NCBI GenBank assembly: GCA_965261225.1
Contig: OZ253456.1
Span: 771,617-835,616 of the forward strand
Direction: 5' to 3'
Length of the DNA: 64,000 bases
From: Dehalococcoidia bacterium
GTDB taxonomy: Bacteria > Chloroflexota > Dehalococcoidia > Bin125
The position numbers and the translations under genes were made by a program. Of this stretch, positions 485-25,316 are shown in pieces (the stretch's first letter is position 1; each line of letters begins with the position of its first letter). The notes under the pieces are model-generated. The model was not told where the DNA came from and did no database searches. It saw nothing but the letters and a program-made list of their open reading frames with translations.

Positions 485-509
485 GCGTATAACTCGATCA
501 GTTATACGC
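485..509. promoter_or_regulatory. Perfect 10-bp inverted repeat, either an operator or a bidirectional terminator
   Basis: gcgtataact-cgatc-agttatacgc, read directly. It lies between the stop of the last dsbA-like gene (548) and the ATG of the ATPase gene (460), in an AT-rich spacer. Confidence 0.35.
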
Positions 510-547
510 GCATAAACTTGATATACATCCACCTGATTCGCCAGAAC

Positions 548-1222
548 TCACCCGGATTGAGCTGCCAGCTCCTTGACCCGCTCGATCAGCGCATCCGCCG
601 ACGTCGGGCCGCGCTCACCGTTGACCAGAATCGCCGGTGTGTTGGAGAGACCACGCGATACGGCGTCGGTGTGCTGACGGTAGATGCGGTCGAGGTGGGC
701 TTGGTCGTCCATGCATTGGGCAAACTGGTCAGTGTCGAGATCGAACTCCGAGGCCACGGCGACCGCGCCGTCTCGCGTGTACGCCTCACGGCTCGGACCC
801 TCGAAGTAGTAGTCGTGGAACTCCCACCAGGCGTCCTGATCGCCGGCGCACTCGGTCGCCAGCGAGGCCATCTCCGAGGGCAGGCCGTGATTGATGATGT
901 GGCGGTACTCGAACCGAGCCAGTCCGGTGGCAATTAGTTCCTCTTCGACGCGCGGCCCAACCTGGGTCGCGAAGTGGCGGCAGCCGCCTCAAAGGAAATC
1001 GGAATACTCCTCGATCACGACAGGCGCATCGGGGTCACCGAGCGAAGCCCGGTCGCGAATGACCTGCACCCGAGCTTCCTGCTCAACCTCCCCCGCCTGC
1101 TCCGTCTGTGCAGCTTGCGAATCGGTTTGCTGATCGTCGCCGTACCCGCCGCCGCAGGCCGCGAGCAGAATCGCGACAGCCACGATGGCGAGCACGCCTA
1201 TCAATATGCGTCGTGCGCTCAT
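548..1222 (-). CDS. DsbA-like thiol:disulfide oxidoreductase lipoprotein, predicted selenoprotein (U-G-G-C redox motif), paralog 1
   Basis: Track ORFs 989..1228 (N-terminus, lipobox LLAAC) and 548..871 (C-terminus) share one frame. The only interruption is TGA 989-991, read as ..EEYSDFL-U-GGC-RHF.., at the first Cys of the thioredoxin-fold CxxC. I translated 872-988 and found no other stop. Start taken at ATG 1222-1220 after GAGGGG. Confidence 0.8.
950..970 (-). promoter_or_regulatory. SECIS-like hairpin downstream of UGA 989-991
   Basis: RNA GCGACCCA-GGU-UGGGCCGC (one mismatch), starting 18 nt after the UGA. It encodes ..ATQVGPR.. Confidence 0.55.
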
Positions 1223-1224
1223 GA

Positions 1225-2148
1225 TCACCCCTCTTCTTCCTGCAATTGTGCCGCGAGTTCCATCACCTGTTCGATCAGAGCATCAGCGACGATCGCGCCG
1301 CCATTGCCGTTGATCCGCACGGTCGGCGTGCGGGAAAAGCCCGCTTCGGCCGCCGCGCGATGCTGGTTCTCGACGGCCTCAAGATGCGTCTGGTTGTCCA
1401 GGCATTGTGCGAACTGTTCAGTGTCCAGTGACAGCGACGCGGCAAACGCCACCGCGCCGTCGCGTGAGAAGTCCCAACTGGTCATGAAGTGGTCGTGGAA
1501 GTCCCACCAGCGACCCTGGTCGCCGCCGCACTCGGTCGCCAACGCGCCCAGCTCCGAAGGCAGCCCGTGGTTGATGATGTAAATGTACTCAAACCGCACC
1601 AGTCCAGTGCGGACCAACTCTTCGATCACCCGCGGCTCAACCTGAGCCGCGAACTTGCGACAAATCGGTCAAAGGAAATCGGCGTACTCGGTGATCACGA
1701 TCGCCGCGGCGGGGTCGCCGACGATATTTCGATTCGCAAACAGTCCTGCGCGGTGTCCAGACTCGATGATTTGGCCGACCATGGCCTGCTGCTCGGGCTC
1801 GTCTTCGGCCGGCTGTTCTTGTTGAGCCGGCGGATCAACCTCAGTCGACGCTTCGGTCGGTTGCTCCTGCGCGTCAGCCTGCTGAGGCGTCGCCGAATCG
1901 TCCGCGTCGTCGGCCGCCTGCTCGGACTGATCAGTCTGTGCGGCCTGCGCGGAGTCCTGAGACTCTGCCTCATCCTGCACCGATTCGCTCTCGCCGGCCG
2001 TGTATGGCGTGGCCGATTGTTCCTGCTGCTCTTGAGCCTCTGTTGCGGCAGCGGATCGTACCTGCGCAGGCTGAGGATCGTCAGCCCCCGACGAACAGGC
2101 CGCCAACAAGAGCACAACCGCTACGAGCGCCAGTCCCAACTTCAGCAT
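1225..2148 (-). CDS. DsbA-like lipoprotein, predicted selenoprotein (U-P-I-C), paralog 2
   Basis: ORFs 1669..2148 and 1225..1629 are in the same frame (924 nt). TGA 1669-1671 falls in ..ITEYADFL-U-PIC-RKFAAQVEPR.. Lipobox LLAAC is followed by an E/Q/A/D-rich linker. The stop overlaps the start region of paralog 1. Confidence 0.85.
1631..1650 (-). promoter_or_regulatory. SECIS-like hairpin downstream of UGA 1669-1671
   Basis: RNA GCGGCUCA-GGU-UGAGCCGC, a perfect 8-bp stem starting 18 nt after the UGA. Confidence 0.6.
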
Positions 2149-2150
2149 CG

Positions 2151-2960
2151 TCAGTCTCCCGCCTGTGCCTCGGACGCCTCAGCCGCCTCGCGGACCTGGT
2201 TGAGCAAGGCGCTCAGCGAGCGACCGCTCGGCTGTCCGTTGACCCTGATTGTCGGCGTCTGCCTGACTCCGTTGGCTCTCGCCTCCCACTGCATTCGCTG
2301 GATGCGATCTGCGTGTTCCTCATTGTCGATGCATTGCGCGAATCGCGCGACATCGAGGCCTTCATCGCGCGCGAGTTCGATCGCGCCGGCACGACTGAAC
2401 GTTCGCGCCAGTCCCTTGAGCAGATAGGCGTCGTGGAACTCCCACCATGCGCCCTGATCGCCCGCGCACTCAGTCGCCATCGCGGCGAACTCCGATGCCG
2501 CACCCAAGATGATGTAGTGCCGGTACTCGTACCGCGCCAGGCCGGTGCGTATCGTTTCTTCAATCAAGCGCGGCTCAAACTGAGCTGCAAAACTCCGGCA
2601 GCCCGGTCATTGAAAGTCGGAATACACGGTGATCAGGACCGGCGCCTCCGGATCGCCGAACACGTTGCGGACAAATGGCAACCCCCGTCGATGTCCAAAA
2701 TCGATCTCACCAGGCTTGGTTGCTGCCAGCTCGGAGTCCTGCTGCTGCGCGATCGACGCTTGACGCTCCGCGCGGTCGCTGCGCTGAGTGCCGGTCGCCG
2801 ACCCATCGCTCTGCTCCCCCGCGTCGCCGCCCGATCCACAGGCCGAAACGAGCAGCCCGAACCCCACCACCATTCCCACCAGTAACGCCGACAGTCGGAA
2901 GCCCACGAACATGAATCGACTGTACTCCAGGCAAGTACGCCAGGCGTTCACGAAACGCAT
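2151..2960 (-). CDS. DsbA-like lipoprotein, predicted selenoprotein (U-P-G-C), paralog 3
   Basis: ORFs 2607..2963 and 2151..2567 are in the same frame. TGA 2607-2609 falls in ..TVYSDFQ-U-PGC-RSFAAQFEPR.. Lipobox LVSAC. ATG at 2960 overlaps the TGA of paralog 4 (GAGGAGGAGTGATG). Confidence 0.85.
2568..2588 (-). promoter_or_regulatory. SECIS-like hairpin downstream of UGA 2607-2609
   Basis: RNA GCAGCUCA-GUU-UGAGCCGC (one mismatch), at the same offset as in the other paralogs. Confidence 0.55.
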
Positions 2961-3844
2961 CACTCCTCCTCCGCCTCTGCCATCTCTGCCGCCCGGTTGA
3001 CCGCCGCTTCGATGGCTTCGAACGTCGGAGCGACTCGCTCACCGTTGACAAACACACTCGGCGTCCCCTGCACCCCGCGAGCGAGCCCTTCGTCATGCGA
3101 GGCGTTGACCAGAGGGAACGTCTGACCCTCGCTCACACAAGTGACGAACTGCTCATAGTTCAAGCCCTCAAACGTGATCTGTCGGCGCAGACCAGCCTCG
3201 GTGTAGAGCGTGCCGTCGTCGGCCATGAAGCGATCATGCAAGGGCCAGAACGCGCCCTGATTCGCGGCGCATTCCACCACCACCGCGGCAAACACGGCCC
3301 GGTCGCCCAGGTACGGAAAGTGGCGGAAGACATACTTGGCCCGACCGGGCGCAATCAGTTGTTCAAGAATCATCGGCTCAACCTGAGCCGAAAAGCGCTG
3401 ACAGATCGGTCAAGTGAAGTCACCGTAGTAAAGGATTTCCACAGCCGAATCCGGGTCGCCAAGCACATGGCGCTCGGAGCGAATCCCCTTGTGCTCGCCA
3501 ACGATCTCCTCCGGCAAGACAACAACCTGCTGGTCTGCCCCGTCCTCCGGCTGAGCGGCAATCTGTTGCTCGGCTCGAGATTCCTCGGTCTGAGCCTGAT
3601 CGGCTCGCGCTTGTTCGACCTGAGCTTGTTCAGCCGGTGTCTCGGCTTGTTGCTCAAGCTGGGCCGGCTCATCGGCAACCGCGACATCTACGTCCTGTTG
3701 TTGTTCCTGCTCTGAAACCGTCGCCTGGCGTTCAACTCGTTGTGAGGTTTGGGAGCCTGTAGCTGCAGGTTCGGACTCACTCTCGGAGCCGCATGCAGCG
3801 GCGAACAAGCCAACAGCGAATAGACAGGCAAGTAGACGTTGCAT
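2960..3844 (-). CDS. DsbA-like lipoprotein, predicted selenoprotein (U-P-I-C), paralog 4 (first gene of the operon)
   Basis: ORFs 3410..3844 and 2960..3373 are in the same frame (885 nt). TGA 3410-3412 falls in ..ILYYGDFT-U-PIC-QRFSAQVEPM.. Lipobox FAAAC is followed by a Q/E/A-rich linker. Confidence 0.85.
3373..3391 (-). promoter_or_regulatory. SECIS-like hairpin downstream of UGA 3410-3412
   Basis: RNA UCGGCUCA-GGU-UGAGCCGA, a perfect 8-bp stem starting 18 nt after the UGA. Confidence 0.6.
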
Positions 3845-3985
3845 AACCTCAGCCTATCGGGGGAGCGGTGACCACTTGACGAGTGCCGAGAGTGCAACTA
3901 TCGTTCGATCTACACCCCCTGTACGCTTCGGCGACAGGGCGCGAGGCTGCCGCTAGGCAGCCTCAGCTATTTCCGGGATCACGTC

Positions 3986-4609
3986 ATCCGCGCGAACCTG
4001 TACGTTGACGGTTTCAATCTATATTACCGGGCCTTGCGCGGGACGCCTGATCGCTGGCTGGATCTCGGACGGTTGGCGCACCTCCTCCTGCCCGGCCATC
4101 AGCTCAACCGAATCCGTTACTTCACCGCTCGCGTGTCCAATCGCCCTGGCGACCCAACCCAAGCGCAGCGCCAACAGGCCTACATCCGAGCTCTCAGCAC
4201 TGTTCCCGATCTCAGCATCCACTACGGTCATCTGCTGTCGAAACGCAAGCGTCGACCACTAGCGGCGTCTCCGCCATCCGGCCCTCGCACGGTCGAGATT
4301 CTGGATACTGAGGAGAAGGGGTCAGATGTCAACTTGGCCTCTTATCTCTTGCTGGACGGCTTTGAAGAGGACTATGAACTGGCCGTCGTGGTCTCCAACG
4401 ATTCTGATCTCGAGCTCCCGATCACCATGGTGCGAGATCGGCTTGGCTAAGTGATCGGCGTCTTCGATCCGAGCGGCAGGCGCAGCTTTCAGTTGTCTCA
4501 AGCGGCGACTTGGTACCGTTCCTTGAGACGCGGTCCACTGAGCGCCAGCCGATTCCCTGAAAAGCTGTCCGACAACCAGGGTGTCATCACGAAACCGTCC
4601 GCCTGGTAG
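3986..4609 (+). pseudogene. NYN-domain (LabA-like) protein, apparently disrupted
   Basis: The frame of ORF 4034..4450 reads ..ANLYVDGFNLYYRALRG.., ..EEKGSDVNLASYLL.., ..VVVSNDSDLELP.. After an in-frame TAA (4448-4450) the same frame continues VIGVFDPSGRRSFQLSQAATWYRSLRRGPLSASRFPEKLSDNQGVITKPSAW* (stop 4607-4609), which looks like the normal C-terminus of this family. There is no ATG/GTG/TTG upstream of the YVDGFN motif before the upstream stop at 3869-3871. Confidence 0.55.
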
Positions 4610-4620
4610 GGCCATGGCGC

Positions 4621-6312
4621 CTAGCCCCGCAACCGCGACATCTCATCCCTGAGCTGCTGCAATCCCATCGGTCCCAGATCAAGCGCCGCCTGATGAAATC
4701 CCTTCAAATCAAACGCGTCGCCCAGCGACTCCCGCGCCGACTCCCGCGCCGCCAGCCATTCCCGTTCGCCCACCTTGTACGAGATCGCCTGACCGGGCCA
4801 GCCGAGGTAGCGGTCGACCTCGCTCGCGAGCATCTTCTGCGGGAAGAATGAGCGCTCGATCAGGAATGGCAGCGCCAGTTCGGGAGTCCAGGTTTCCCCG
4901 CCGTGGTACGGCTCCTGCTCCGGGATCGGCAGTTCCAGGTGCATCCCGATATCAATCACCACTCGCGCCGCGCGCAGTGCCTGGCTACTGAGCAGGCCCA
5001 TGTAGAAGGCGGGATCCTCGAGATAGCCCAGCTCCGCCATCAGCCGCTCGGCGTACAGCGCCCAGCCCTCGACATAACCCGACGTGCCCGCCAGCAGCCG
5101 CTGGTATCGCGTGAGCTGCTCGCCGAGATAGCGCGTGGTCCCAATCTGCAAGTGGTGTCCGGGCACGCCCTCGTGGTAGCAGACCGAGAGCTCGCGCCAG
5201 AGCGGGAAGCGAGTCTCGCCGCCGGTCGGATACCAGGTCCGGCCGGGACGCGAGAAGTCTTCCGACGGTCCCGTGTAATACATCGCCAACGCCCCACCGG
5301 GCGGCGCGATCATCGCCTCGATCTGCTGCACCGGCGCCGCGATGTCGAAGTGCGTGCCCTGCAGCGACTGCATCGTGTCGTCCTGCGTCTGCTGCATCCA
5401 CTCGCGGAACGCGTCCTCACCCTCAATCGCCCGAGCGTCGTCCGACTCAAGGATCGCAATCGCCTCAGCCGCCGTCGCGCCCGACGAAATCCGCTCCGCC
5501 GTCGACGCCATCTCCGACTGAATCCGCCACAGCTCTTCCCAGCCCCACTGATACGTCTCGTCAAGGTCGAGCTCAATCCCATTGAACCCACGAGAAGCCG
5601 CCTGATAACGCTCGCGACCAACCGGGTCATGAGGATTAGCCTTCGGCAAGTACACCGATTCCAACCACTCAGCCATCGCCGCATACCCCCGCTCCGCCGC
5701 CGCAACATTCGCACCACCATCAATACCCAGGCTGTCCACCAGATTCTGGAAAAACCCATTCCCAGTCCCCGCTTCACGCGGGGACCCGCTCGGTCCCGCC
5801 CCAGCCCACACCCGACACTGCGCAATCCCACCAAGAACCTGCCGCTGAGCCACCACAATCCCCTCATCCATCCCCGCCGCCAACGACGCCCGATAGTTCG
5901 CCAGCGCCTCCGGCACCGCGCCCATCCGCTCCACAATCCGCCCGTGATCCTCCTCCGTCTCGCGAGGCATCAGATCAAACACCTGCCGAGTGTTCTGCAG
6001 CGGAGAGGCGAGGATGTTCAGCGATCGCAGATGCTCACCCTGAGACTCCAGCTCGGTCTCAAAGTCAAAGCGCTCAAGCATCACATCCCGAGCCACCCGG
6101 TCCCGCTCCGTCTCCACATTAAGCAAGCGCAACGCCGCCTCCGCCTGCCGACGAATCGCCGACCGCTCCGCATGACCATCAGGAGAATAATCCGTCAGCT
6201 CCGTCTCCCGCCCCGGAATCCCCAAAGAATTCGCCATATTCGGATGGGCCGCCGCCAACGCCTCGACATACCAGTCCGAAATCTCCGAAGCGGTATTCAG
6301 TTCAGCACTCAT
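4621..6312 (-). CDS. DUF885 family protein (HExxH-like YHEGVPGHH motif)
   Basis: ORF 4621..6357. The sequence is typical of DUF885 (..WYPTGGETRFPLWRELSVCYHEGVPGHHLQ..). Start moved to the internal M (MSAELNTA..) because 6313-6357 overlaps an intergenic repeat copy. Confidence 0.8.
   Translation of the reverse strand: MSAELNTASEISDWYVEALAAAHPNMANSLGIPGRETELTDYSPDGHAERSAIRRQAEAALRLLNVETERDRVARDVMLERFDFETELESQGEHLRSLNILASPLQNTRQVFDLMPRETEEDHGRIVERMGAVPEALANYRASLAAGMDEGIVVAQRQVLGGIAQCRVWAGAGPSGSPREAGTGNGFFQNLVDSLGIDGGANVAAAERGYAAMAEWLESVYLPKANPHDPVGRERYQAASRGFNGIELDLDETYQWGWEELWRIQSEMASTAERISSGATAAEAIAILESDDARAIEGEDAFREWMQQTQDDTMQSLQGTHFDIAAPVQQIEAMIAPPGGALAMYYTGPSEDFSRPGRTWYPTGGETRFPLWRELSVCYHEGVPGHHLQIGTTRYLGEQLTRYQRLLAGTSGYVEGWALYAERLMAELGYLEDPAFYMGLLSSQALRAARVVIDIGMHLELPIPEQEPYHGGETWTPELALPFLIERSFFPQKMLASEVDRYLGWPGQAISYKVGEREWLAARESARESLGDAFDLKGFHQAALDLGPMGLQQLRDEMSRLRG
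5761..5793. repeat. Family A palindromic repeat copy lying inside the DUF885 coding sequence
   Basis: cccagtccccgcttcacgcggggacccgctcgg is identical to the intergenic copy at 29157-29189. Here it is translated in-frame as ..GAGPSGSPREAGTGNG.. Confidence 0.8.
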
Positions 6313-6329
6313 CAAAGACCTCATTCCCA

Positions 6330-6382
6330 AAAGCTCCCCCCTTGGGGGAGCTGTCACGAAGTGACTGAGGGGGCCGGCCCCC
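6330..6382. repeat. Family C palindromic repeat
   Basis: aaagctccccccttgggggagctgtcacgaagtgactgagggggccggcc. Related copies are at 8343, 20904, 25874, 25952 and 40447. Confidence 0.8.
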
Positions 6383-8391: not shown

Positions 8392-8479
8392 ACACAACAT
8401 CCGCCAACCCCAACACACCGACAGAACAAATGTCCGCATACCATCGACTCCACCCGTCGCCAGCCCGAAGGAGCAGTCA

Positions 8480-8827
8480 ATGTCCGAGCAGAAGCCATTC
8501 ATCCCCTTCGAGGGCAACGCCATCCGCCGCGCCCTCGGCGAGCTCGCCGCCACCGGCCCTGGCTACGTCCGACTCGGCGCTCTCAAGGTCATGGCCTCCA
8601 TGCTCGGTCTCTCCGACGATCCCCTCGCCCACGCCGATCCCCAGCGCGATCGACGACTCGATGCCGCCCTCGATGAGGTTGAAGCCATCCTCGGCGAGGC
8701 GCTCCGCAGCGAGACCAGGGTGCAGACCGCCGACCCGGACTCCCAATCCGGCCCCGAAGGCGGCGACGATCAAGACAACCAGGCAGAGCAGCAGGAAGAA
8801 GCCGACGATGACGACGAACCACCATAA
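8480..8827 (+). CDS. Hypothetical acidic protein, in the position of a small terminase subunit
   Basis: Internal ATG of ORF 8153..8827, preceded by GAAGGAG. It reads MSEQKPFIPFEGNAIRRALGEL... with a D/E/Q-rich tail, and overlaps the terminase start by 20 nt. Confidence 0.5.
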   Translation: MSEQKPFIPFEGNAIRRALGELAATGPGYVRLGALKVMASMLGLSDDPLAHADPQRDRRLDAALDEVEAILGEALRSETRVQTADPDSQSGPEGGDDQDNQAEQQEEADDDDEPP

Positions 8828-10217
8828 TTCCTCAGACCGCACGGTCCGTAAGGCCCTCAAAGCCCTCCATCGGCTCCGTTTTTTTTCTCCCACAGAGCGC
8901 CAACAAGAACTCTACGAAGAGATCTTCGACGCGTCCCCGGACAGCCTCACCCTGCTCGGCTACGGAGGCGCCATGGGCGGCGGCAAAACTCGCGCCGTCG
9001 TCGAACTCGCCATCGACGCCGCCCTCGCCTTCCCCGGCAACAACATCCTCGTCGCTCGACAACACTTCACCGACCTCTCCGGAACCACCATGAAGGCGTT
9101 CTACAACGCCTGCCCCGATGAGTACATCCGCAGCACGCAATCCGCCCCGACGCCACTCGCCAGGATCGCCCTCCCAAAGCGCCCCAACGACCACATCTCG
9201 ACCATCAACTTCCGACACCTCACCGACTGGTCCGGCCTCGGATCCCAGGAATATGGCGCCGTGCTGATCGACGAAGCGGGAGAGGTCGCCGAGGAGGCCG
9301 CGCAGATGCTGCTCACCCGACTCCGGCACCCCGCCCAGCCCCAGCGCTGGTTCGTCGCCGCATCCAATCCCTGGCCGGGCTGGTTCGAGCGCTGGTTCGC
9401 CCGACGCGAGCTGGACGAGGAAGCCTTCGCCGAAGCCGACGGGCGGATCGTCTACATCCCGGCGAAGATTCCCGACAACCCGCACCTGCCCTCGACCTAC
9501 GCCGCCCAGCAACGAGCGATTCAGCCCGGCGAGTGGGTCGACCGCTTCATCGAGGGCAGCTTCGACGCCTTCGACGGGCAAATCTACCAGCACTTCAGCC
9601 CCGACACACACCGATGGGACGCGCCCCTGCCGCCCTTCGCCCGATACGTCGGCGGACTCGACTTCGGCGGGCAATCGCCCAAGGACCACTACACCGCCGG
9701 CATCGTCGCCGGCCTCACCGACCAGCGCGCGCCCTGCGGACCCAACATCCTGATCCGGCTGGGCGAGTTTGAGGAGCGCGGCCCCGGCGTCACCCAGCGA
9801 CTCGAGCAGTGGCAACAGTCCTGGCATCGCAAACTCGGCCCCATCCAATGGTGCGCCGACCGCTCACAGTCGGCCTGGATCGACCACCAACGCCGACAGG
9901 GCCACCACGTCGTCCCCAGCAAGGGAGGGCCGGACAGTGTCAACTGGGGCATCGCCTTAGTACAACAACGACTCAACGGAGACCCACCCAGCGCCTACTA
10001 CACCCCCGCAATGGATAAGTTCCCCGGCCGGATGCGTGAGTATCAGTGGGATCAGTCAACCACCGACCAGAGTCCAAAACCAAAGAAACGAAACGACGAC
10101 CTGCTTGACGCCGACCGCTACATGCACGAAATCGCAACCCAGCAACCAAGAACCAGGACAACATTCAAGCTCACCACCCCCGTCAGAGGCCGAGACGCCC
10201 GCTGGAGGGGAGCATGA
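8808..10217 (+). CDS. Phage terminase large subunit (ATPase plus nuclease)
   Basis: Frame of ORF 8430..10217, start taken at ATG 8808 (MTTNHHNSSDRTV..). Walker A YGGAMGGGKTRA, Walker B AVLIDEAGE, ..IPAKIPDNPHLP.., and nuclease part GGLDFGG...DDLLDADRYMHE. Confidence 0.8.
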   Translation: MTTNHHNSSDRTVRKALKALHRLRFFSPTERQQELYEEIFDASPDSLTLLGYGGAMGGGKTRAVVELAIDAALAFPGNNILVARQHFTDLSGTTMKAFYNACPDEYIRSTQSAPTPLARIALPKRPNDHISTINFRHLTDWSGLGSQEYGAVLIDEAGEVAEEAAQMLLTRLRHPAQPQRWFVAASNPWPGWFERWFARRELDEEAFAEADGRIVYIPAKIPDNPHLPSTYAAQQRAIQPGEWVDRFIEGSFDAFDGQIYQHFSPDTHRWDAPLPPFARYVGGLDFGGQSPKDHYTAGIVAGLTDQRAPCGPNILIRLGEFEERGPGVTQRLEQWQQSWHRKLGPIQWCADRSQSAWIDHQRRQGHHVVPSKGGPDSVNWGIALVQQRLNGDPPSAYYTPAMDKFPGRMREYQWDQSTTDQSPKPKKRNDDLLDADRYMHEIATQQPRTRTTFKLTTPVRGRDARWRGA

Positions 10218-10226
10218 CCCGTGAGG

Positions 10227-10487
10227 TCAGTCGAGGAAGGCGATGAGCAGACCGACAGCGCCGATAATCAATCCGGTCGCAATCATCATGGCGAGCAGCA
10301 GTTGCGTGCGCATCTCGGCCATGTCGCGCCGCATCTCTGTCATCAGCAACTTGAACTTCAGGTCCGACTCACGACGTCCGTACGTGTGGTTGTCAATCGC
10401 GTCTGCCGCCTCGTCAGCCTGCGCCTCCTCGACCCCCAACGAGTGGAAGGCGCGCCTGAGCCGGACGATCGGATTCATCGCCGCCAT
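10227..10487 (-). CDS. Tail-anchored small membrane protein, paralog A (DUF1640/XhlA-like architecture)
   Basis: 86 aa: MAAMNPIVRLRRAFHSLGVEEAQADEAADAI.., a charged helical middle, and a C-terminal TM LLLAMMIATGLIIGAVGLLIAFL. Confidence 0.7.
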   Translation of the reverse strand: MAAMNPIVRLRRAFHSLGVEEAQADEAADAIDNHTYGRRESDLKFKLLMTEMRRDMAEMRTQLLLAMMIATGLIIGAVGLLIAFLD

Positions 10488-10499
10488 GCTCGACCCTCC

Positions 10500-10793
10500 T
10501 CAGTTGACTGCGACGATGATGGCGACTGCGACGCCGACGATCACGATGATCTCGATCAACAGCTCCCGTCGATGCGCGATCATCATCTCCCGCATCTCGG
10601 CGGTCTGCTGCCGCAGCTCCGCCATCATGCGCTCAAAGCGCAGGTCCGATTCGCGCCGGCTGTAGCCGTATTCGCTGATCGCATCGGCGGCCTCTTCCGA
10701 AATGTCGTCAGCGGCGACATCGGTCAAGGGCGCACTCGCCCCCAACGAGCGAAACGCCCGTCGCAACCGCAGAATCGGATTCATCGCCGCCAT
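10500..10793 (-). CDS. Tail-anchored small membrane protein, paralog B
   Basis: 97 aa with the same N-terminal MAAMNPILRLRRAFRSLG and C-terminal ..HRRELLIEIIVIVGVAVAIIVAVN. A 12-nt gap containing GGAGGG separates it from its neighbour. Confidence 0.75.
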   Translation of the reverse strand: MAAMNPILRLRRAFRSLGASAPLTDVAADDISEEAADAISEYGYSRRESDLRFERMMAELRQQTAEMREMMIAHRRELLIEIIVIVGVAVAIIVAVN

Positions 10794-10805
10794 GCTCGAC
10801 CCTCC

Positions 10806-11054
10806 TCAGTTGAGTGCGACGATGATGGCGACTGCGACGCCGACGATCACGATGATCTCGATCAACAGCTCTCGTCGATGCGCAGCCATCATCTCCTGCA
10901 TCTTGGCCATCTCACGCTGGAACATCAACTCAGTCTCGCGTCGGCTAAAGGAATGATCGCCGAGCGCATCCGCTACCTCGTCGACCTGCTCATCATCCAC
11001 GCCCAACGAGCGAAATGCCCGTCGCAAACGCAGGATCGGGTTCATCGCCGCCAT
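10806..11054 (-). CDS. Tail-anchored small membrane protein, paralog C
   Basis: 82 aa. The N- and C-termini are identical to paralog B at protein level, and long DNA stretches are shared (10470-10580 versus 10776-10885). Confidence 0.75.
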   Translation of the reverse strand: MAAMNPILRLRRAFRSLGVDDEQVDEVADALGDHSFSRRETELMFQREMAKMQEMMAAHRRELLIEIIVIVGVAVAIIVALN

Positions 11055-11066
11055 GCCCGTTCCTCC

Positions 11067-11297
11067 TCAGTTGACCAGCGCCAGAAGCGCGACGCCCAGC
11101 CCGACGATGATCAGCACGCCGAGCAGCAACGGATTGCGATCCTCCGCCATGATCCTGGCGATCCGCTCCTCGAATTCGCGGCGACTCAGGTAGATGTCGT
11201 CCAGCACCGTCGACAGCTCGTCCGCCTCCTGAGGCTGCGCCCCGACCTGTCGAAACAAGCGGCGCAATCGCAAGATCGGGTTCATGCTCGACATCAC
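11067..11297 (-). CDS. Tail-anchored small membrane protein, paralog D
   Basis: 76 aa: MMSSMNPILRLRRLFRQVG..., C-terminal TM LLLGVLIIVGLGVALLALV. It lies 33 nt downstream of the methyltransferase stop, with GAGG before the ATG. Confidence 0.7.
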   Translation of the reverse strand: MMSSMNPILRLRRLFRQVGAQPQEADELSTVLDDIYLSRREFEERIARIMAEDRNPLLLGVLIIVGLGVALLALVN

Positions 11298-11330
11298 AGC
11301 CTCGCGTTCCTCGTCCCCAATATACCGTAC

Positions 11331-14300
11331 TTATCGCCTATCTGTTCTACGTTGAGAATCCTCCCCGTTCTCAGTAAAGACCACCCGAGACCGCTTCCCC
11401 CCATGAATCTGAGGCTCCCGAGCCAGCTTGCGCCGAATCAAATCAATCGGCCCATCGTCCGCCACCAAGGATTCCGGAAGCCCCAAAACATCAACCAAAA
11501 TCGCCCGGTCCAACTTCGCCCGAGCCGGGTCCTCATCAATCTGGTCAAAAGGAAGAAACCGCTCCGCAGAAAGCAACGCAAACTGCCGCTTGGCCTCGGT
11601 ATGCTGAGCATCGGTAAGGGTGCGGGTGTCGAGAGTAGGAATGTTAGGAATGCCGCTGACGGTTGTAGTGCCACGACCGTCTTGTGTCTTGTTGGCGACC
11701 CACCAGTGGATAAGCAGTCCGAGTGTCGAGTTGCACCACAGCGAGAACGCGTATTCGTGTTCAGAGTCTTGCAGGATGACAGAAGGCCACGCCCGCCCTC
11801 CAATGCACTTGCGCTCAGTCATTGCCACAATCAACGACTGAGAGTTGAATCGGAGATCGCGGTTATAGTGGGCTCGTGTAGCAGTCGCCCACACATGGGC
11901 GGCTTTGTCCTGCAACAATTCCTCCATACCCTCATCGATTCTCAACAATCCTTCGGAATCAGGTTCCACGGTCAGGCGACGTTCGCGTTTCGCCTTGTGC
12001 GCCCAAAGAGTTGGATACGTCGGTACAGGTCCTTGTGGAGGCGACTGAATGTCGAATGGCCCCCGAATTTGCCTCGCTCCGCCGACGAAGGACTGCTCTA
12101 TGCCATTGATGTCACGATCGACCGGGCCGCGTTCTGCAATTCTTCCTATAGGTACTACGGCGATAGGTATGTCCTCTGCTCCCGGTTCACCTATACGCTG
12201 CATTCTTCGCAGAGTAAGTTGGTGCGCGAACTGTGCCAATTCGAGATCGAGAATCCCGCAGAGAGTCCAGGGCCCCGATTCTTGAAGCGCCATAGAACTT
12301 ATCGTTCCGTAAGTTGCTCCGCCGAGTTGCAACGCTGTAACACCGCTACCGTCCTCAATAGAACGAACATTGGAGTTGCGCTGCAACTTACGTATCTCAT
12401 TGCCGAGTTGCTCTGCCTCGGTCGCCGTCGTTGGAAGCTTCCGCAAGACCACGAACCAGTTGTGGCGATCGTTGTCCTTCGCAACCTGATCGTGCGTGAG
12501 TACCACGAGGCATTCGGCCATTCCGGTGTCGGCAGAGAACGACCGGTCAAAGCTTCCCTCCGCCGCGATTGTGACAACGGTGGTCTCTCTGTAGTCATCT
12601 TGCCATTGACCTCGCAGTTTGTCCCAGGAACTGCCACTCATCGACGAAAGGGGCAGAACAAACGCCAAACTTCCGTCCTCGTTTCGCTTGCGATGTGCGA
12701 GTTCTGCGAACAATGCCGCCATACCTGCATTTCCTGCAGCGGCAGAGCCTTTAGTAAGAGATTTCTCGCGGCGAGACATCGCGTCCTGCTGCTGAGGCGT
12801 CGTCTCGAATGCAGAGTAGGCAGGATTTGGAACGTCGCTATGTGCACCCTCGTGGTTCGTCGGGCGCGTAAAGGGTGGATTCATGATCACCAGATCGAAC
12901 TTGTCGTGACCAACTCTTGTCCTCAAATCGGCAACATCTTCCGGAAGACGTCCTCCAGACGTGGTTGCAGATGCATCCTCAATCAGACTTGGCTGTACGT
13001 CTTTAGCGAGCAGCTCCAGCGACCCAATCGACGCCGACTCCCCGCCGTACGGCATCGTCAGCAGGCACTCACCATCGAAGGGCACGTCAGGATGTGCCCC
13101 CGCGAGCATCGTCGCCGTCAGATGCACCGCGATATTGAGCACATCGAGTCCGACCAGCCCGTTCTTCATCATCGGCGCGTGCAGCGCTCGCGGGTCGCCG
13201 CCGTTGAGCTCGTGCAGCAGCGAGATGCGCTGGTAGGCCGCCGAGAGCAGCGTCCCCGTGCCGCAGGCGAAGTCGCCGATCTGCAGCGAGGCGATCGTCT
13301 CCTCGTCGCCCCACTCCGCCCCACCCGGCGCACGGTCGGCGGGAATCGCCAACCCGGCCAGCAGCGCCGCCGCCGCCGGTCGCGTGTAGAATGTCGCCAG
13401 GAACTTCCGGTCCGCAATCAGACGCTGAAAGATCACCCCGGTCAGGTCGTGCGACTTGGTCACCCCGCGTTGCACCAGACGCAGCGCGCCCTTGCGCAAT
13501 GGCGTCAGCACCGCCGCGGCCGTCTCTTCCGGCAGCTTGCGGACAATCTCCGACGCCGTCGCGAAAATCGGCCAGTAGTTGATCTCCAGCACAGACTCCC
13601 ATTCCAGAGTCAGGGCGTCAATGTCGAAGTCGCCCGGCGGCAGCAGCTCACGCAGGTGTCGCAGACGTCGCTGCGCGCCTGCATCGGTGATGAAAAACTC
13701 GGCCCCGGCCAGCGCCTCATGGAAAATCAGCGCATTGATCACAACAGTCATCGCCATCCGGCGAGTCTGACCGCCCTGATCATCGGATTGTCCAAGCAGG
13801 TCGGCGATATCAGAGCCAATCGACCCCGTTGCGTGGGAGCCGTGCCGGTAAGTGAAGGCAGCCGCGGCGTCCTCAATGCTCTGCTCGAGGATCACACCCA
13901 TGCGCTCGACGCGCGGCGCCGGTGTCGAGGCCCGATGCGCCAACATCGCCAGGTCACGGGCAGAGCCCGTCAGCCAACCGCTCTGCGGCAAGCGCTCCAC
14001 GCCGCCGCCACGCGTGCGCGTCAGCAGCGCGTATTCCAGACCGTCCGTGGTCCGCAACGTCTGTCGCAATTCCTTTCCGTCGATCTCCCAAACCTCCGGC
14101 GGATAGACCAGCGCGATTACGCTCTCGATCGGCTTGCGGGTCTCGTTGACGACCTGTCCCAGCCGATCACGCGCATCCAATTCGGCGCTGTCGTAGTTCG
14201 CTTTGTCCGCCTCAATCGCCACAGGCCACTGCGCCGCTTCTTCAATCAGCACATCGGGCCGCTTGGCAGAGGATCGAATCGTGCGAGTCTCTTCGAAATG

Positions 14301-14378
14301 CACCTGCCAACTGTGAGGCCGAAGCTCCCGCAGCACCTCGCCCAGAGCGACATTGATCGTGTGCTCATGAGTAGGCAT
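11331..14378 (-). CDS. Large single-chain N6-adenine DNA methyltransferase with an N-terminal nuclease-like domain (type IIG/IIL-like restriction-modification enzyme)
   Basis: 1015-aa ORF. SAM motif I is DFACGTGTLL and catalytic motif IV is VIMNPPFTRP, a gamma-class order. The N-terminus has a possible PD-(D/E)xK-like signature (KRPDVLIEE..WPVAIEADK). The roughly 400-aa C-terminal region has visibly lower G+C, as expected for a target-recognition domain. Confidence 0.75.
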   Translation of the reverse strand: MPTHEHTINVALGEVLRELRPHSWQVHFEETRTIRSSAKRPDVLIEEAAQWPVAIEADKANYDSAELDARDRLGQVVNETRKPIESVIALVYPPEVWEIDGKELRQTLRTTDGLEYALLTRTRGGGVERLPQSGWLTGSARDLAMLAHRASTPAPRVERMGVILEQSIEDAAAAFTYRHGSHATGSIGSDIADLLGQSDDQGGQTRRMAMTVVINALIFHEALAGAEFFITDAGAQRRLRHLRELLPPGDFDIDALTLEWESVLEINYWPIFATASEIVRKLPEETAAAVLTPLRKGALRLVQRGVTKSHDLTGVIFQRLIADRKFLATFYTRPAAAALLAGLAIPADRAPGGAEWGDEETIASLQIGDFACGTGTLLSAAYQRISLLHELNGGDPRALHAPMMKNGLVGLDVLNIAVHLTATMLAGAHPDVPFDGECLLTMPYGGESASIGSLELLAKDVQPSLIEDASATTSGGRLPEDVADLRTRVGHDKFDLVIMNPPFTRPTNHEGAHSDVPNPAYSAFETTPQQQDAMSRREKSLTKGSAAAGNAGMAALFAELAHRKRNEDGSLAFVLPLSSMSGSSWDKLRGQWQDDYRETTVVTIAAEGSFDRSFSADTGMAECLVVLTHDQVAKDNDRHNWFVVLRKLPTTATEAEQLGNEIRKLQRNSNVRSIEDGSGVTALQLGGATYGTISSMALQESGPWTLCGILDLELAQFAHQLTLRRMQRIGEPGAEDIPIAVVPIGRIAERGPVDRDINGIEQSFVGGARQIRGPFDIQSPPQGPVPTYPTLWAHKAKRERRLTVEPDSEGLLRIDEGMEELLQDKAAHVWATATRAHYNRDLRFNSQSLIVAMTERKCIGGRAWPSVILQDSEHEYAFSLWCNSTLGLLIHWWVANKTQDGRGTTTVSGIPNIPTLDTRTLTDAQHTEAKRQFALLSAERFLPFDQIDEDPARAKLDRAILVDVLGLPESLVADDGPIDLIRRKLAREPQIHGGKRSRVVFTENGEDSQRRTDRR

Positions 14379-14410
14379 CGGGCGCTCAGTCTAGACGCCG
14401 TCCGCCACCC

Positions 14411-14803
14411 TCAAACCGACTCGATGACGAGGTTCGGGATGCGCTCGAAGTGGCGGCGGTTGTTGGTCAGTAGGGTCAGGTCGTGCTGTAGCGCCGTCGC
14501 CCCGATCAGGAGGTCCATGCTGCCGAACAAATTGCCTTGCCTGCGCAAACGATTGCGTTCGATTCCGAACAGGCGGGCTGTCTCGAAGTCGACTCCCAAC
14601 AGCACAAGGTCTCCAACAAACATCCGTAACTGCTGTTCACGTTGCGCACGATCAGGCGCGCCCGCGACTCCCTCGTATAGCTCGGCCAATGCGATCACAC
14701 TGATGGCAATGCCGAGAGGTTCCAGGGATACGATGCGACTCACAAGTCGTTCGATGCCGTTGAGGTACTCGATGGCCCAGTCGGAGTCCAACAGGTATTG
14801 CAT
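14411..14803 (-). CDS. vapC: PIN-domain toxin VapC
   Basis: Internal ATG of ORF 14411..14983: MQYLLDSDWAIEYL...ALAELYEG...MDLLIGATALQHDLTLLTNNRRHFERIP, which are PIN acidic motifs. Confidence 0.8.
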   Translation of the reverse strand: MQYLLDSDWAIEYLNGIERLVSRIVSLEPLGIAISVIALAELYEGVAGAPDRAQREQQLRMFVGDLVLLGVDFETARLFGIERNRLRRQGNLFGSMDLLIGATALQHDLTLLTNNRRHFERIPNLVIESV

Positions 14804-14807
14804 CGTC

Positions 14808-15056
14808 TCAGAGATGCCTGGGCGGTCGTGTGCCGTCGATGCGGGCTTGGTAGATGTCGCGGATGAATTGTTCGTGGTCATCGAACATATCAGCCCAGAC
14901 ACCTGCAGACCTGGCCAGCCCCCCCTTGTCGGATGGTGGCTGCTTGTGGTCATCCAGGGTGAGGACGACTTCCTGGTCTTCACTGAGGTCGATGTCCTCG
15001 AGCGGCTCGAGGACGCCGTTGTGGTAGCGGGCGCGGAAGTTCTTGAGCGTCATCAT
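14808..15056 (-). CDS. DUF104/AF2212-like antitoxin (VapB-type partner)
   Basis: 82 aa: MMTLKNFRARYHNGVLEPLEDIDLSEDQEVVLTL.. is typical of DUF104. It ends 4 nt upstream of vapC. Confidence 0.7.
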   Translation of the reverse strand: MMTLKNFRARYHNGVLEPLEDIDLSEDQEVVLTLDDHKQPPSDKGGLARSAGVWADMFDDHEQFIRDIYQARIDGTRPPRHL

Positions 15057-15116
15057 CGCCTCCGAGCTTCACCGTATCAGTCTGGCCCAGGCGCGGTCAC
15101 GCCCTACACTCTGCCC

Positions 15117-16334
15117 ATGACCGACCAACCTGGACCCCTCGACGGTGTGACTGTCCTCGACCTCACCGAGCACATTGCCGGGCCGTATTGCACCAAGCTG
15201 TTTGCCGACTTTGGCGCCGATGTGATCAAGGTCGAGCCTCACGACGGCGACGCGTCGCGGTCGGTCGGGCCGTACTACGAGGGCCTACCGGGGCTTGAGC
15301 GGTCGGGGACGTTCTTCTACTTCAACACCAACAAGCGCTCGCTCGTGCTCGACCTGGAGCACGCCGACGCCGGCACGGTAGTCGAGCGGCTGATTCAGCG
15401 CGCCGACATCGTGGTCGAGTCGCAGCCGCCGGGTCGGTTGGACGAGCTGGGCCTCGGCTGGGAGCGGATCTCGTCGTTGCGCGACGACCTGCCGCTGGTC
15501 TCGATCTCGCCGTTCGGCCACGACTCGCCCTACCGCGACTACAAGGTGTCGGACCTGGTGCTCTACGGCTTCGCCGGCGAGATGTACTCAATCGGCGTGC
15601 AGGACCGCGAGCCGGTCAAGATGTTTGGCACGGCCTCGCTGGTCGAGTGCGGCGCGGCCGCGGCGACGGCGTCCCTGGGCGCGCTGACAGCGGCCGAACT
15701 GCAGGGCATCGGCCAACAGGTCGACTTTTCCATGGCCGACGCACAGTTCAACGGTGTCGACCGTCGCCACGCCGCGACCATTGGCTGGGAGTTCGCGGGC
15801 CGCAAGTCGCTGCGCGCGCCCGGTCCGGCGGCCGGCATGCTGACCGGCGTCTATCCCTGCGCCGACGGCTACGTCGAGTTCTCGGGCGCCGCCATCCGCA
15901 TCCCCAGGCTGAACGAGATGCTCGGTCGTCCCGAGTGGCTGCAAGACGAGAAGTGGTGGCAGCCAGGCATCGGTCTGAACCCGGAGCTGGTGGACGAGTT
16001 CAACGCACACTTCCTGCCCTGGTCGCTAGAGCGAACCAAGCGAGACATCTGGGCTACGGCGCGAGAAGCCAGAGTGCTCTGCGGCCCACTCTTCTCAGTC
16101 GACGAATTGTTCGAGGACACCCACTTCAGCGACCGAGGCTTCTGGGCAACGGCCAATCATGCGGAGCTGGGAGAAGTCCAGCTCCCCGGCCGGCCACTAA
16201 TCATGCCGGCATCGCCGTGGAGCCTGAGGCGCCCACCGCCACTGCTCGGCGAGCATACGGACGAGGTGTTGTCGGAGTGCGGGTTTGGAGCGGAAGAGGT
16301 GGAGGCGCTGCGGAGGTCTGGAGTGGTAAAATGA
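15117..16334 (+). CDS. Family III CoA-transferase (CaiB/BaiF-like)
   Basis: 3' part of the artefactual 2037-aa ORF. ATG 15117: MTDQPGPLDGVTVLDLTEHIAGPYCTKLFADFGADVIKVEP..., C-terminal ..LGEHTDEVLSECGFGAEEVEALRRSGVV. Confidence 0.85.
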   Translation: MTDQPGPLDGVTVLDLTEHIAGPYCTKLFADFGADVIKVEPHDGDASRSVGPYYEGLPGLERSGTFFYFNTNKRSLVLDLEHADAGTVVERLIQRADIVVESQPPGRLDELGLGWERISSLRDDLPLVSISPFGHDSPYRDYKVSDLVLYGFAGEMYSIGVQDREPVKMFGTASLVECGAAAATASLGALTAAELQGIGQQVDFSMADAQFNGVDRRHAATIGWEFAGRKSLRAPGPAAGMLTGVYPCADGYVEFSGAAIRIPRLNEMLGRPEWLQDEKWWQPGIGLNPELVDEFNAHFLPWSLERTKRDIWATAREARVLCGPLFSVDELFEDTHFSDRGFWATANHAELGEVQLPGRPLIMPASPWSLRRPPPLLGEHTDEVLSECGFGAEEVEALRRSGVVK

Positions 16335-22088: not shown

Positions 22089-22210
22089 TGCAACAGAATA
22101 GTGGGCGCCGTGTCGCGCTCCATGTGCAAGGCTCGCCAACGAGCTGCCTGGTTCGATCTCAATGGTTCCGCTTGCAGAGACTGATGCATCACTCCCCTCT
22201 CCTCCCTTGC

Positions 22211-23419: not shown

Positions 23420-23541
23420 GGGGGCTGGTCCCCGCTCGGGGGCGGGGACGGTTAGGGCTCAGGCGCCAGTTCTGGTAGGTGGGACTGGAACGGGTCCCCG
23501 CTCGGGGGCGGAGACGGGAATCTGAGTTATGCATCGGTCTC
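23420..23541. repeat. Family B element arm in inverse orientation
   Basis: Two hairpins (ggtccccgctcgggggcggggacgg and gggtccccgctcgggggcggagacgg). It ends gttatgcatcggtctc, the reverse complement of the left terminus with one mismatch. Confidence 0.7.
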
Positions 23542-23807
23542 CGCACGGGGGGGGGAGCGGCCGTCGCGCAGCACATGCGTACCTGGGCGGCGGCAGCCTC
23601 CTCCGCGCCTGCGGCGCACCTCCCACAACGGGGGAGGTCTTGAACCACCGCGAGTTCGCGAGCAGCGAAACACGCCCGAAACATCTGACACATTGCCGAA
23701 ATGTACGCGCAACCGAAATGACATCTGGGCGCAACTCTTATGAAACCACAACATTGCCGACCTTCCATACGTTGCCTTCAGACCGGAATTCGGGAAGGGA
23801 GGCAATT

Positions 23808-25316
23808 GTGATACTTGCCCGATTGGTCAGGACACAGCCACTATCGTTTGGGGCTGTCCGCAAACCTGGACTGGGGTTATTCCTCGGTATCCTCACCGGC
23901 CTGTTGGCCACCGTTGGCATCGCCTATGGACAAAGCGTTGAAGAAAACGCTGCGGCGCTCGCCGACCTTGTCCTCGCGGTTGACACCATTTGGTTTGTCA
24001 TTGCCGGCGTCCTGGTGTTCTTCATGCAGGCTGGCTTCGGATTGCTCGAGGCCGGCTTCGTGCGTGTCAAGAACACCTCCAACATCCTGATGAAGAACGT
24101 GCTCGACGCGTCCGTCGGCGCGGTCGTCTGGTGGGCGGTTGGCTTCGGCTTCGCCTTCGGCGGCAGCCAGGGCGGACTGATTGGCGGTGACTCGTTCTTC
24201 CCCGCGCTCGGTGGACTGACCGACACCAGCGGCGGCGTCTCCGAGGCAGCCGTCTTCTTCTTCCAGTGGGCCTTCGCCGCCACTGCCGCGACCATCGTCT
24301 CCGGCGCCCTGGCCGAGCGAACCAAGTTCAGCGCCTACCTCTTCTACACCGTGTTCGTGACCGGCATCATCTACCCCATCGTGATTCACTGGGGCTGGGG
24401 CGGCGGCTGGCTCGGCGAACGTGGCTTCATGGACTACGCAGGCTCGACCCTGGTCCACAGCGTCGGCGCATGGGCCGGACTGATGGGCGCCATCATGGTC
24501 GGTCCGCGGATCGGCAAGTACGTCGGTGCGGAAATCCGCGCCATCCCCGGCCACAACATGACCCTCGCCACGCTGGGTATGTTCATCCTCTGGTTCGGTT
24601 GGTACGGGTTCAACGCCGGCTCCACCCTCGGACTCTCCGGTGGACTCGCGACCGAGGCCGCCTGGATTGCCATCAACACCACCCTCGCAGCCGGTACTGG
24701 TGCAGTCGTCGCCATGTCGGTCGCCAAATTCCGCTACGGCAAGGCCGACCTCGGTCTGACCGTCAACGGCGCGCTCGCCGGACTCGTCTCGATCACCGCA
24801 GGTTGTGGATTCGTCGAGCCCTGGGCCGCCGTCCTGATCGGCGGCATCGGTGGCGGACTGGTCGTCTTCGCGGTCGAAACGTTCGACCGGATCAAGATCG
24901 ACGACCCCGTTGGCGCAATCTCCGTCCACGGCGTCTGCGGCGTCTGGGGCACGCTCGCGGTTGGCCTCTTCGCCACCGCCGGCGCAGCCGAAGCCTGGGG
25001 CGCTCCCGGACACGGCCTGTTCATGGGCGGCGGCTTCCGCGCCCTGCTCGAGCAGCTGATCGGCGTCCTCTCGATCTTCGCCTGGGTCAGCGTGACCTCC
25101 GCCATCCTGTTCCTCGTGATCAAGAAGACCATCGGACTGCGTGTCTCGGAGAACGAAGAACTGGCCGGACTCGACGTGCAAGAGCACGGCATCGGCGCCT
25201 ACCCCGAGTTCCCGACTGTTGCGCCCGGCGTGGCTGTCGAAATCTCGGCTGGCGAGGAGAGTCCAGCACCGGCTGGCAGCCCATCAGGCGGTGGCGGAGG
25301 CAGCGGAGGCGACTAG
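23808..25316 (+). CDS. amt: Ammonium transporter
   Basis: Frame of ORF 23529..25316, with GTG 23808 after GGGAAGGGAGG. Motifs: ..FFMQAGFGLLEAGFVRVKNTSNILMKN.., ..AISVHGVCGVWGTLAVGLFA.. Confidence 0.9.
   Translation: MILARLVRTQPLSFGAVRKPGLGLFLGILTGLLATVGIAYGQSVEENAAALADLVLAVDTIWFVIAGVLVFFMQAGFGLLEAGFVRVKNTSNILMKNVLDASVGAVVWWAVGFGFAFGGSQGGLIGGDSFFPALGGLTDTSGGVSEAAVFFFQWAFAATAATIVSGALAERTKFSAYLFYTVFVTGIIYPIVIHWGWGGGWLGERGFMDYAGSTLVHSVGAWAGLMGAIMVGPRIGKYVGAEIRAIPGHNMTLATLGMFILWFGWYGFNAGSTLGLSGGLATEAAWIAINTTLAAGTGAVVAMSVAKFRYGKADLGLTVNGALAGLVSITAGCGFVEPWAAVLIGGIGGGLVVFAVETFDRIKIDDPVGAISVHGVCGVWGTLAVGLFATAGAAEAWGAPGHGLFMGGGFRALLEQLIGVLSIFAWVSVTSAILFLVIKKTIGLRVSENEELAGLDVQEHGIGAYPEFPTVAPGVAVEISAGEESPAPAGSPSGGGGGSGGD

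Follow-up and report, generated by a model that had tools for sequence, protein, structure and literature searches.

The 64,000-nucleotide stretch analysed here, hereafter the window, comes from a Dehalococcoidia bacterium (GenBank assembly GCA_965261225.1, contig OZ253456.1, positions 771,617 to 835,616 of the forward strand). Near its beginning, at positions 548–3844 of the minus strand, lies a tandem array of four genes for predicted DsbA-like lipoproteins, each interrupted by an in-frame TGA. A first-pass annotation, made from the sequence alone, had joined eight open reading frame (ORF) fragments into these four co-linear genes and had proposed that the TGA is read as selenocysteine (Sec, U). 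Translation of the minus strand gave the same four genes (3844–2960, 2960–2151, 2148–1225 and 1222–548), with exactly one in-frame TGA in each (3412–3410, 2609–2607, 1671–1669 and 991–989). The genes, their internal UGA codons and the hairpins resembling a selenocysteine insertion sequence (SECIS) are the following.

Gene A, 2960..3844, minus strand: 'T-U' orthologue group; lipoprotein signal MQRLLACLFAVGLFAAAC, acidic Q/E/A linker, DsbA-like domain, U-P-I-C.
In-frame UGA of gene A, 3410..3412, minus strand: predicted Sec codon.
SECIS-like hairpin of gene A, 3372..3392, minus strand: UCGGCUCA-GGU-UGAGCCGA; also flagged as a stem-loop by a terminator-like scan.
Gene B, 2151..2960, minus strand: 'Q-U' group; ATG at 2960 overlaps the stop of gene A; lipobox LVSAC; U-P-G-C.
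In-frame UGA of gene B, 2607..2609, minus strand.
SECIS-like hairpin of gene B, 2569..2589, minus strand: GCAGCUCA-GUU-UGAGCCGC; one A.C mismatch.
Gene C, 1225..2148, minus strand: 'L-U' group, PNC/GNC/PIC subgroup; lipobox LLAAC; U-P-I-C.
In-frame UGA of gene C, 1669..1671, minus strand.
SECIS-like hairpin of gene C, 1631..1651, minus strand: CGCGGCUCA-GGU-UGAGCCGCG.
Gene D, 548..1222, minus strand: 'L-U-GGC' subgroup; ATG at 1222 (or GTG at 1228); lipobox LLAAC; short linker; U-G-G-C.
In-frame UGA of gene D, 989..991, minus strand.
SECIS-like hairpin of gene D, 951..971, minus strand: CGCGACCCA-GGU-UGGGCCGCG.

The TGA contexts were re-read as YGDFT-U-PIC-QRF, YSDFQ-U-PGC-RSF, YADFL-U-PIC-RKF and YSDFL-U-GGC-RHF, in agreement with the original claim. 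The lipoboxes (FAAAC, LVSAC, LLAAC and LLAAC), the acidic linkers rich in Q, E, A and D, and the ECAGDQ..WW.FHD block were also all found as described. A lipoprotein-type signal (positively charged n-region, h-region and lipobox) was present in the four window genes and in 123 of 130 homologues, as judged by a pattern check and not by a dedicated predictor. The linkers of the four window proteins range from 19 to about 106 residues, with net charges from −3 to −26, the upper values being those of gene C. In gene B, an internal ATG at 2912 would give a shorter and more typical signal peptide.

Start and stop codons overlap or nearly abut, as had been noted, with the junctions TGATG (1-nt overlap, at the gene A stop TGA at 2962–2960), TGAcgATG and TGAtcATG. 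A GGAGG-like purine run precedes each gene junction and, together with the junction geometry, fits one translationally coupled operon. The claim that TGA serves as an ordinary stop elsewhere also held: it ends 18 of the 25 window ORFs checked, including all four array genes, and global reassignment of UGA was therefore rejected. The pattern of TGA followed by xxTGY and a hairpin occurs at just these four sites in the 64 kb (0.00 expected from 100 shuffles).

Domain searches were performed with the TGA written as cysteine (Cys). Pfam Thioredoxin_4 (PF13462) matched the four genes with 80.5–95.1 bits (cutoff 23.2; E from 7e-27 to 2e-22), and the alignment crosses the TGA. The gathering score of PF01323 (DSBA) was reached by genes A, B and D. 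When aligned with solved structures, the U column fell on the first Cys of CPxC in 3GYK and in Corynebacterium diphtheriae DsbA (4PWP/4PWO), where the earlier prediction had placed it. The nearest solved structures by sequence were 3GYK (a Silicibacter thioredoxin-like oxidoreductase), 4PWP/7UNN (C. diphtheriae DsbA and TsdA), 3EU3 (Bacillus subtilis BdbD) and 4K6X/4JR4 (M. tuberculosis DsbA). An AlphaFold model of P0069, a Cys homologue of 41% identity, had a predicted local distance difference test score of 91 and a fold matching TsdA, DsbA and BdbD; a helical insertion domain in the thioredoxin fold was seen in the P0069 model only.

The Cys-containing DsbAs of monoderms, namely BdbD (3EU3), DsbA/TsdA (4PWP, 7UNN), 4K6X/4JR4 and Wolbachia alpha-DsbA1 (3F4R), fall by sequence into the same fold family (E from 1e-13 to 1e-8). 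They share with the array proteins an exported or membrane-anchored location and the cis-Pro 'TP' loop, and the CPSC-like dipeptide is common to group B. In contrast, they carry Cys where the array has Sec, and their identity to the modelled Cys homologue is low (20–34%). T104 and P105 of the 'GTP' motif were invariant in 39 sequences and would correspond to the cis-Pro loop of DsbA, with a presumed cis conformation. The Dehalococcoidia proteins further differ from the monoderm enzymes by an additional invariant Cys pair, ECAGDQ…QC. A structural disulfide is known in Wolbachia alpha-DsbA1, and by analogy this pair may form one as well.

The distribution of the TGA was studied at the protein and at the genome level. 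When the domain of gene B was compared with a database of 5.8 billion proteins, all 67 close clusters (52–99% identity) were C-terminal stubs of 108–150 amino acids covering just 52–76% of the query. Full-length Cys-containing proteins of the DsbA family appeared only at 43% identity or less, and the few named ones belong to candidate-phyla bacteria and DPANN-type archaea. Since all close clusters are C-terminal stubs, gene callers everywhere stop at the TGA codon. In all the public gene calls examined, each gene appeared as two entries, an N-terminal piece lacking annotation and a stub labelled 'thioredoxin domain'. The predicted mis-annotation was observed directly in two related complete chromosomes, where four genes had been called as eight pieces in one and two genes as four pieces in the other.

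The scan of relatives, which covered one genome per Genome Taxonomy Database (GTDB) species, found the locus in 37 species-representative metagenome-assembled genomes (MAGs) of Dehalococcoidia/Chloroflexota, with 2–5 genes per array. A six-frame motif scan gave 136 TGA-x-x-TGY sites, corresponding to 130 non-redundant genes; the largest array observed has five U genes (L009:4171-7597, plus strand). TGC or TGT was seen only in one paralogue of locus L035, in L040 and in non-Chloroflexota loci. The Cys homologues amounted to 15 TGC/TGT sequences, 13 of them from other phyla, all without the hairpin sequence. The L035 paralogue (L035:4075, plus strand) has R-C-ERC in the usual 'T-U' slot and has lost the hairpin sequence. 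It is the sole Cys paralogue within the clade and a natural Sec-to-Cys control. Homologues ending at this position, with the two halves as separate genes, had been named as a possible objection; instead, about 37 related species keep the TGA.

Clustering of the domains separated a 'T-U' group (35 genes in 35 loci), a 'Q-U' group (38 in 38) and an 'L-U' group (52 genes in 34 loci), the last containing both PNC/GNC and GGC motif variants. Identity was 65–74% inside the paralogue groups and about 37–44% between them, and the gene order A-B-C-D is conserved among relatives. Since the groups are shared across species in a conserved order, the duplications predate the species, and every copy kept its TGA. 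In the preferred interpretation, the four genes form a single operon of anciently diverged paralogues. In five relatives, synonymous changes equalled or exceeded non-synonymous ones in most orthologue comparisons, both for the 35 codons before the TGA and for the 120 codons after it, which looks like purifying selection on both sides. One of the relatives, bin125 (L010), was obtained from the sponge Aplysina aerophoba (Slaby et al. 2017); for isolates labelled SB066x, IRC, RHO and PNGco, a sponge origin is suggested by name only.

The region 3' of each TGA, for which a decoding hairpin had been predicted, contained a conserved and covarying hairpin at all four sites. In the window genes the stem-loop has the common form (C)GCGGCUCA-GGU-UGAGCCGC(G), with a stem of 7–9 bp beginning 17 nt past the UGA and a small G-containing apical loop (GGU/GUU) 26 nt past it. 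In the bSECISearch consensus, the apical loop reportedly lies 16–37 nt past the UGA, and the geometry found here agrees with that range. It also agrees with the bacterial SECIS described in the Sargasso Sea study (PMC1088965). Matches to Rfam SECIS models were absent at the gathering threshold in the whole window, and at E up to 10 in positions 500–3900 only noise was obtained.

Covariation was evaluated on 123 distinct segments of 54 nt, aligned without gaps, for nine proposed pairs (columns 21–29 with 33–41). These pairs were formed in 89.5% of the cells, compared with 28–37% when the 3' partner was slid by 1–3 columns. The pair 27-35 was U-A in 99 segments, C-G in 18, G-C in 3 and unpaired in 3; the pair 29-33 was A-U in 107 and G-C in 6; and the pair 22-40 showed five standard pair types. 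The G of column 30, beside the loop as the last base of the 5' arm, was invariant. Within the window itself, gene D has a compensatory C-G (ACCC/GGGC) where genes A–C have U-A. Synonymous-codon entropy was 0.00–0.39 bits at codons +7 to +12 (GCG GCU CAG GUU GAG CCG), which make up the hairpin, and 0.9–1.9 bits at well conserved Gly, Ala, Pro and Arg codons nearby. Since synonymous choice is frozen over the hairpin only, selection acts on the RNA and not merely on the peptide A-A-Q-V-E-P.

Indirect support for Sec decoding beyond the array came from the relatives and from a further gene in the window. The MAG bin125, which has the same four-gene array, is listed with one SelA (COG1921) and one SelB (COG3276) (Slaby et al. 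2017, Table S4), and both proteins were reported to be enriched in sponge-symbiont bins in the same study. In addition, the BSepDB paper ranks two MAGs of Dehalococcoidia among its top ten bacteria by number of selenoprotein genes, with 49 and 46. The further gene is listed here.

Fifth selenoprotein gene (predicted), 39911-40438, TGA at 40193-40195, plus strand: UGSC family, 175-aa ORF, D-U-GSC.

The site at 40193 was ranked first in a coding-potential scan of all in-frame TGAs of the window, and the ORF list splits the gene at it (39911-40195 and 40217-40438). The product matched NCBIfam NF041046, 'UGSC family (seleno)protein', with E 1.4e-33 and 116 bits, compared with a cutoff of 125. A stem-loop, CGUGCA-GUG-UGCACG, lies 13 nt past the UGA. 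This family resembles the array genes in combining an in-frame UGA with a downstream G-containing stem-loop, and differs from them in its unrelated fold and motif (D-U-GSC). The putative UGSC gene supports decoding of UGA as Sec elsewhere in the source genome. The gene just upstream of it (38826-39878) had no Pfam or NCBIfam match.

Two kinds of known selenoproteins are similar to the array products. NCBIfam NF041057, 'Rcas_1661 family thioredoxin-like (seleno)lipoprotein', matched the four proteins with 108.3, 123.7, 136.5 and 141.1 bits (E from 4.5e-31 to 4.3e-41); almost the whole model aligned to gene A, and in genes B–D the match covered the domain. This model, named after a Chloroflexi locus tag, shares with the array the UxxC thioredoxin-like domain and the N-terminal lipoprotein signal, and in a 2026 selenoproteome review it stands for the selenoproteins with a UxxC motif called 'DsbG-like protein' (PMC13188914). 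The array is different in having 2–5 paralogues in one operon, with long acidic linkers. The second kind, the 'DsbA-like protein' selenoproteins (UxxC; COG2761/PF01323), was first reported from the Sargasso Sea in 2005 (PMC1088965), and a subsequent count gave 45 genes in 41 organisms (PMC5029168). They also have Sec in place of the first Cys of CxxC in a domain of the DsbA superfamily, and a SECIS with G in a small apical loop after the UGA. The array proteins, however, are predicted lipoproteins and score far better on PF13462 than on PF01323 (23–37 bits); FrnE structures ranked low, the COG2761 family itself being compared by description only.

Taken with the alignment of U to the catalytic Cys, the covarying hairpin and the TGA kept in about 37 species, the proposal of Sec-containing extracytoplasmic oxidoreductases was supported. 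The four genes very probably constitute a selenoprotein operon encoding DsbA/BdbD-type lipoproteins in which the internal UGA is decoded as Sec. In the proposed mechanism, the internal UGA would be read as Sec by SelB with Sec-tRNA(Sec), guided by the SECIS hairpin inside the coding sequence, while the terminal UGA of each gene, which has no such hairpin, would end translation. The products would leave the cytoplasm, receive a lipid at the lipobox Cys and stay on the outer side of the cytoplasmic membrane, where the long acidic and probably disordered linkers would tether the domains. The U-x-x-C centre would then carry out thiol-disulfide exchange with exported proteins through a selenenylsulfide intermediate. 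Both the membrane topology and the incorporation of selenium are predictions from sequence.

Some observations weigh against this interpretation. Neither the 64-kb window nor the flanks that were fetched contained selA, selB, selD or tRNA-Sec. A tblastn search of the window and of 58 loci with the SelA, SelB and SelD proteins from Escherichia coli returned only an elongation-factor-like gene in one archaeal locus, and ARAGORN and Rfam (gathering threshold) found no tRNA gene and no other RNA family in the whole window. Folding energy was significant for gene C only (−32.2 kcal/mol for the 63-nt segment, z = −4.07) and unremarkable as single sequences for the other three hairpins (z = −1.2, +0.1 and +0.75); therefore, the case for the hairpin rests on the comparative data. 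The hairpin-encoded Q-x-E-P is partly present in the Cys-type actinobacterial DsbA 4PWP, indicating that some of the conservation in this region acts on the protein. The NF041057 scores all stay below the 190-bit equivalog cutoff, so the array proteins are divergent relatives and not equivalog members. Finally, no partner of the DsbB, VKOR or CcdA type was present among the window ORFs scanned.

This last result bears on the alternative that survives best, which retains Sec and changes the function: the proteins would be extracytoplasmic reductases or isomerases (DsbG-, ScsC- or TlpA-like) or a peroxidase-like surface defence instead of DsbA-type oxidases. Such a function has a fair probability, though less than even, and catalysis may run in the direction of an oxidase, an isomerase or a reductase. 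It fits the lack of a DsbB or VKOR gene nearby, the 'DsbG-like' NF041057 as the best curated family match, and the presence of ScsC and DsbG structures among the fold matches. The chemistry would also suit it: reducing a selenenylsulfide is more difficult than reducing a disulfide, and as a nucleophile and leaving group Sec is the better one. Nevertheless, the closest solved relatives, by both sequence and fold, are monoderm oxidases (BdbD, C. diphtheriae DsbA/TsdA and Mycobacterium tuberculosis DsbA), and group B mostly has the BdbD-like xPSC motif.

Decoding of the UGA as another residue was considered very unlikely, whether a suppressor or reassigned tRNA were to insert Cys, Trp or Gly, or Cys-tRNA(Sec) were to insert Cys. 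Cys would also be chemically suited to the position, and no Sec machinery was detected within the window. On the other side, UGA is the main ordinary stop in the window and ends these very genes, and the position-specific covarying hairpin of SECIS type is what SelB-dependent decoding requires. SelA and SelB are present in a relative with the same array, and the clade is documented as rich in selenoproteins.

Slightly less credible still is that translation stops at the UGA, giving an acidic N-terminal lipoprotein and a separate C-terminal thioredoxin-like piece, with the hairpin acting in attenuation or mRNA stability. Sec insertion is generally inefficient, and truncated products probably exist too. 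The hairpin of gene A was flagged by the terminator-like scan; however, a T-rich tail follows the stem in gene A only, and the role of intrinsic terminator was rejected for this reason. A lone C-terminal piece would lack the signal peptide as well as the active site, including the start of its xxC half. Moreover, the first in-frame starts after the TGA vary (ATG 3373, TTG 2567, GTG 1629 and ATG 871), while the codons from the TGA to those starts are conserved as protein. The split into two genes was rejected because both the thioredoxin fold and the match to Pfam continue across the TGA and coding constraint is found on both sides.

Although standard gene callers do report eight fragments, the idea that the TGAs arose through faulty sequencing or assembly, or that they mark pseudogenes inactivated by mutation, was rejected as practically negligible, given the TGA in 130 genes of 37 independently assembled species (from short-read and long-read assemblies), the apparent purifying selection on both halves, and the implausibility of four independent hits on one catalytic codon within one operon.

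Within the preferred interpretation of a selenoprotein operon of DsbA/BdbD type, the differing x-x dipeptides (PIC, PGC/PSC, PNC/GNC and GGC) suggest different redox potentials or clients. A more ambitious proposal is that the paralogue set (T-U-xxC, Q-U-PSC, L-U-(P/G)NC and L-U-GGC), in which Sec is kept throughout, is not a group of redundant copies but a lineage-specific, selenium-based extracytoplasmic redox module of mostly sponge-associated Dehalococcoidia, for example a relay that needs no classical DsbB/VKOR partner and whose members share out the tasks of oxidase, isomerase and reductase or peroxide scavenger. This is regarded as speculative and rather improbable.

Regarding novelty, the first-pass annotation had rated the array as unusual, which proved too high: UxxC selenoproteins of the DsbA-like and DsbG-like kinds have been known since 2004–2005, the DsbG-like kind being the older of the two, a curated NCBIfam model exists, and Dehalococcoidia are documented as selenoprotein-rich. 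The array is a systematically mis-annotated subgroup of a known kind of selenoprotein. In the literature searched, neither a description of tandem arrays of such genes nor a selenoproteome analysis of sponge symbionts was found; BSepDB may already list the genes individually. The conserved multi-paralogue operon, with 2–5 Sec paralogues mis-annotated as fragments, appears to be the only new element.

No new decoding mechanism or protein class is revealed, and the value of the array is of another kind. Its recognition would add 2–5 selenoproteins per genome, in at least 37 species, to a clade already noted for them. Abundant symbionts, many of them apparently from marine sponges, would invest selenium in several disulfide-exchange enzymes of the cell surface. 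Since all the copies seem to have kept Sec from before species divergence, a catalytic or oxidative-stress benefit of extracytoplasmic Sec is pointed to. For comparative biochemistry, the arrays offer a natural series of U-x-x-C variants and one Cys revertant without the hairpin.

The array is preceded by a conserved neighbour.

DUF885 gene, 4621..6357, minus strand: directly upstream of the array, same strand; E 4.5e-145.

In 34 of the 36 related species where it was found, the DUF885 gene adjoins the array upstream on the same strand; in the other two it is downstream and on the opposite strand. With 80–95% identity among relatives, it is more conserved than the DsbA-like genes. The association may be functional or may reflect synteny alone. 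A 138-aa ORF (4034-4450, plus strand), NYN/LabA-like by eye only, separates the array from DUF885; it was found in some relatives only and is 100% identical in locus L005. This slot is variable, since locus L001 holds an aspartic-protease-like gene there instead.

On the other side of the DUF885 gene, a gene similar to the terminase large subunit was found at 8430-10217 (plus strand; Pfam Terminase_3, E 1.8e-8). Its counterparts in 11 related species have 62–83% identity and mostly lie near DUF885 (12 loci were fetched, one genome contributing two). It appears to be a conserved gene of the chromosome and not the mark of a recent prophage. Next to it, at 10227-11297 (minus strand), are four tandem paralogous small genes of 76–97 aa, all starting with MAAMNPI or MMSSMNPI, three of which end in a hydrophobic segment (…IVIVGVAVAIIVAVN-stop). 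Upstream of this tandem is a gene of 1015 aa (11331-14378, minus strand) with an NPPF motif of N6-methyltransferase type. The 2037-aa plus-strand ORF at 10221-16334 encodes a family III coenzyme A (CoA)-transferase at its 3' end; the remainder is probably spurious.

A full-length Amt gene is located at 23529-25316. A second ORF of 203 aa (53988-54599, plus strand) matched only the C-terminal third of the ammonium-transporter profile (positions 265–399 of 399) and may be a disrupted or mis-started gene; a short DDE-transposase-like ORF (51393-51935, plus strand) lies about 2 kb upstream of it. The window also contains at least four family III CoA-transferase genes (15.1–16.3 kb, 19677-22139, 48862-50043 and 50036-51265), accompanied by acyl-CoA dehydrogenase, thiolase-like, carboxyl-transferase and amidohydrolase genes.

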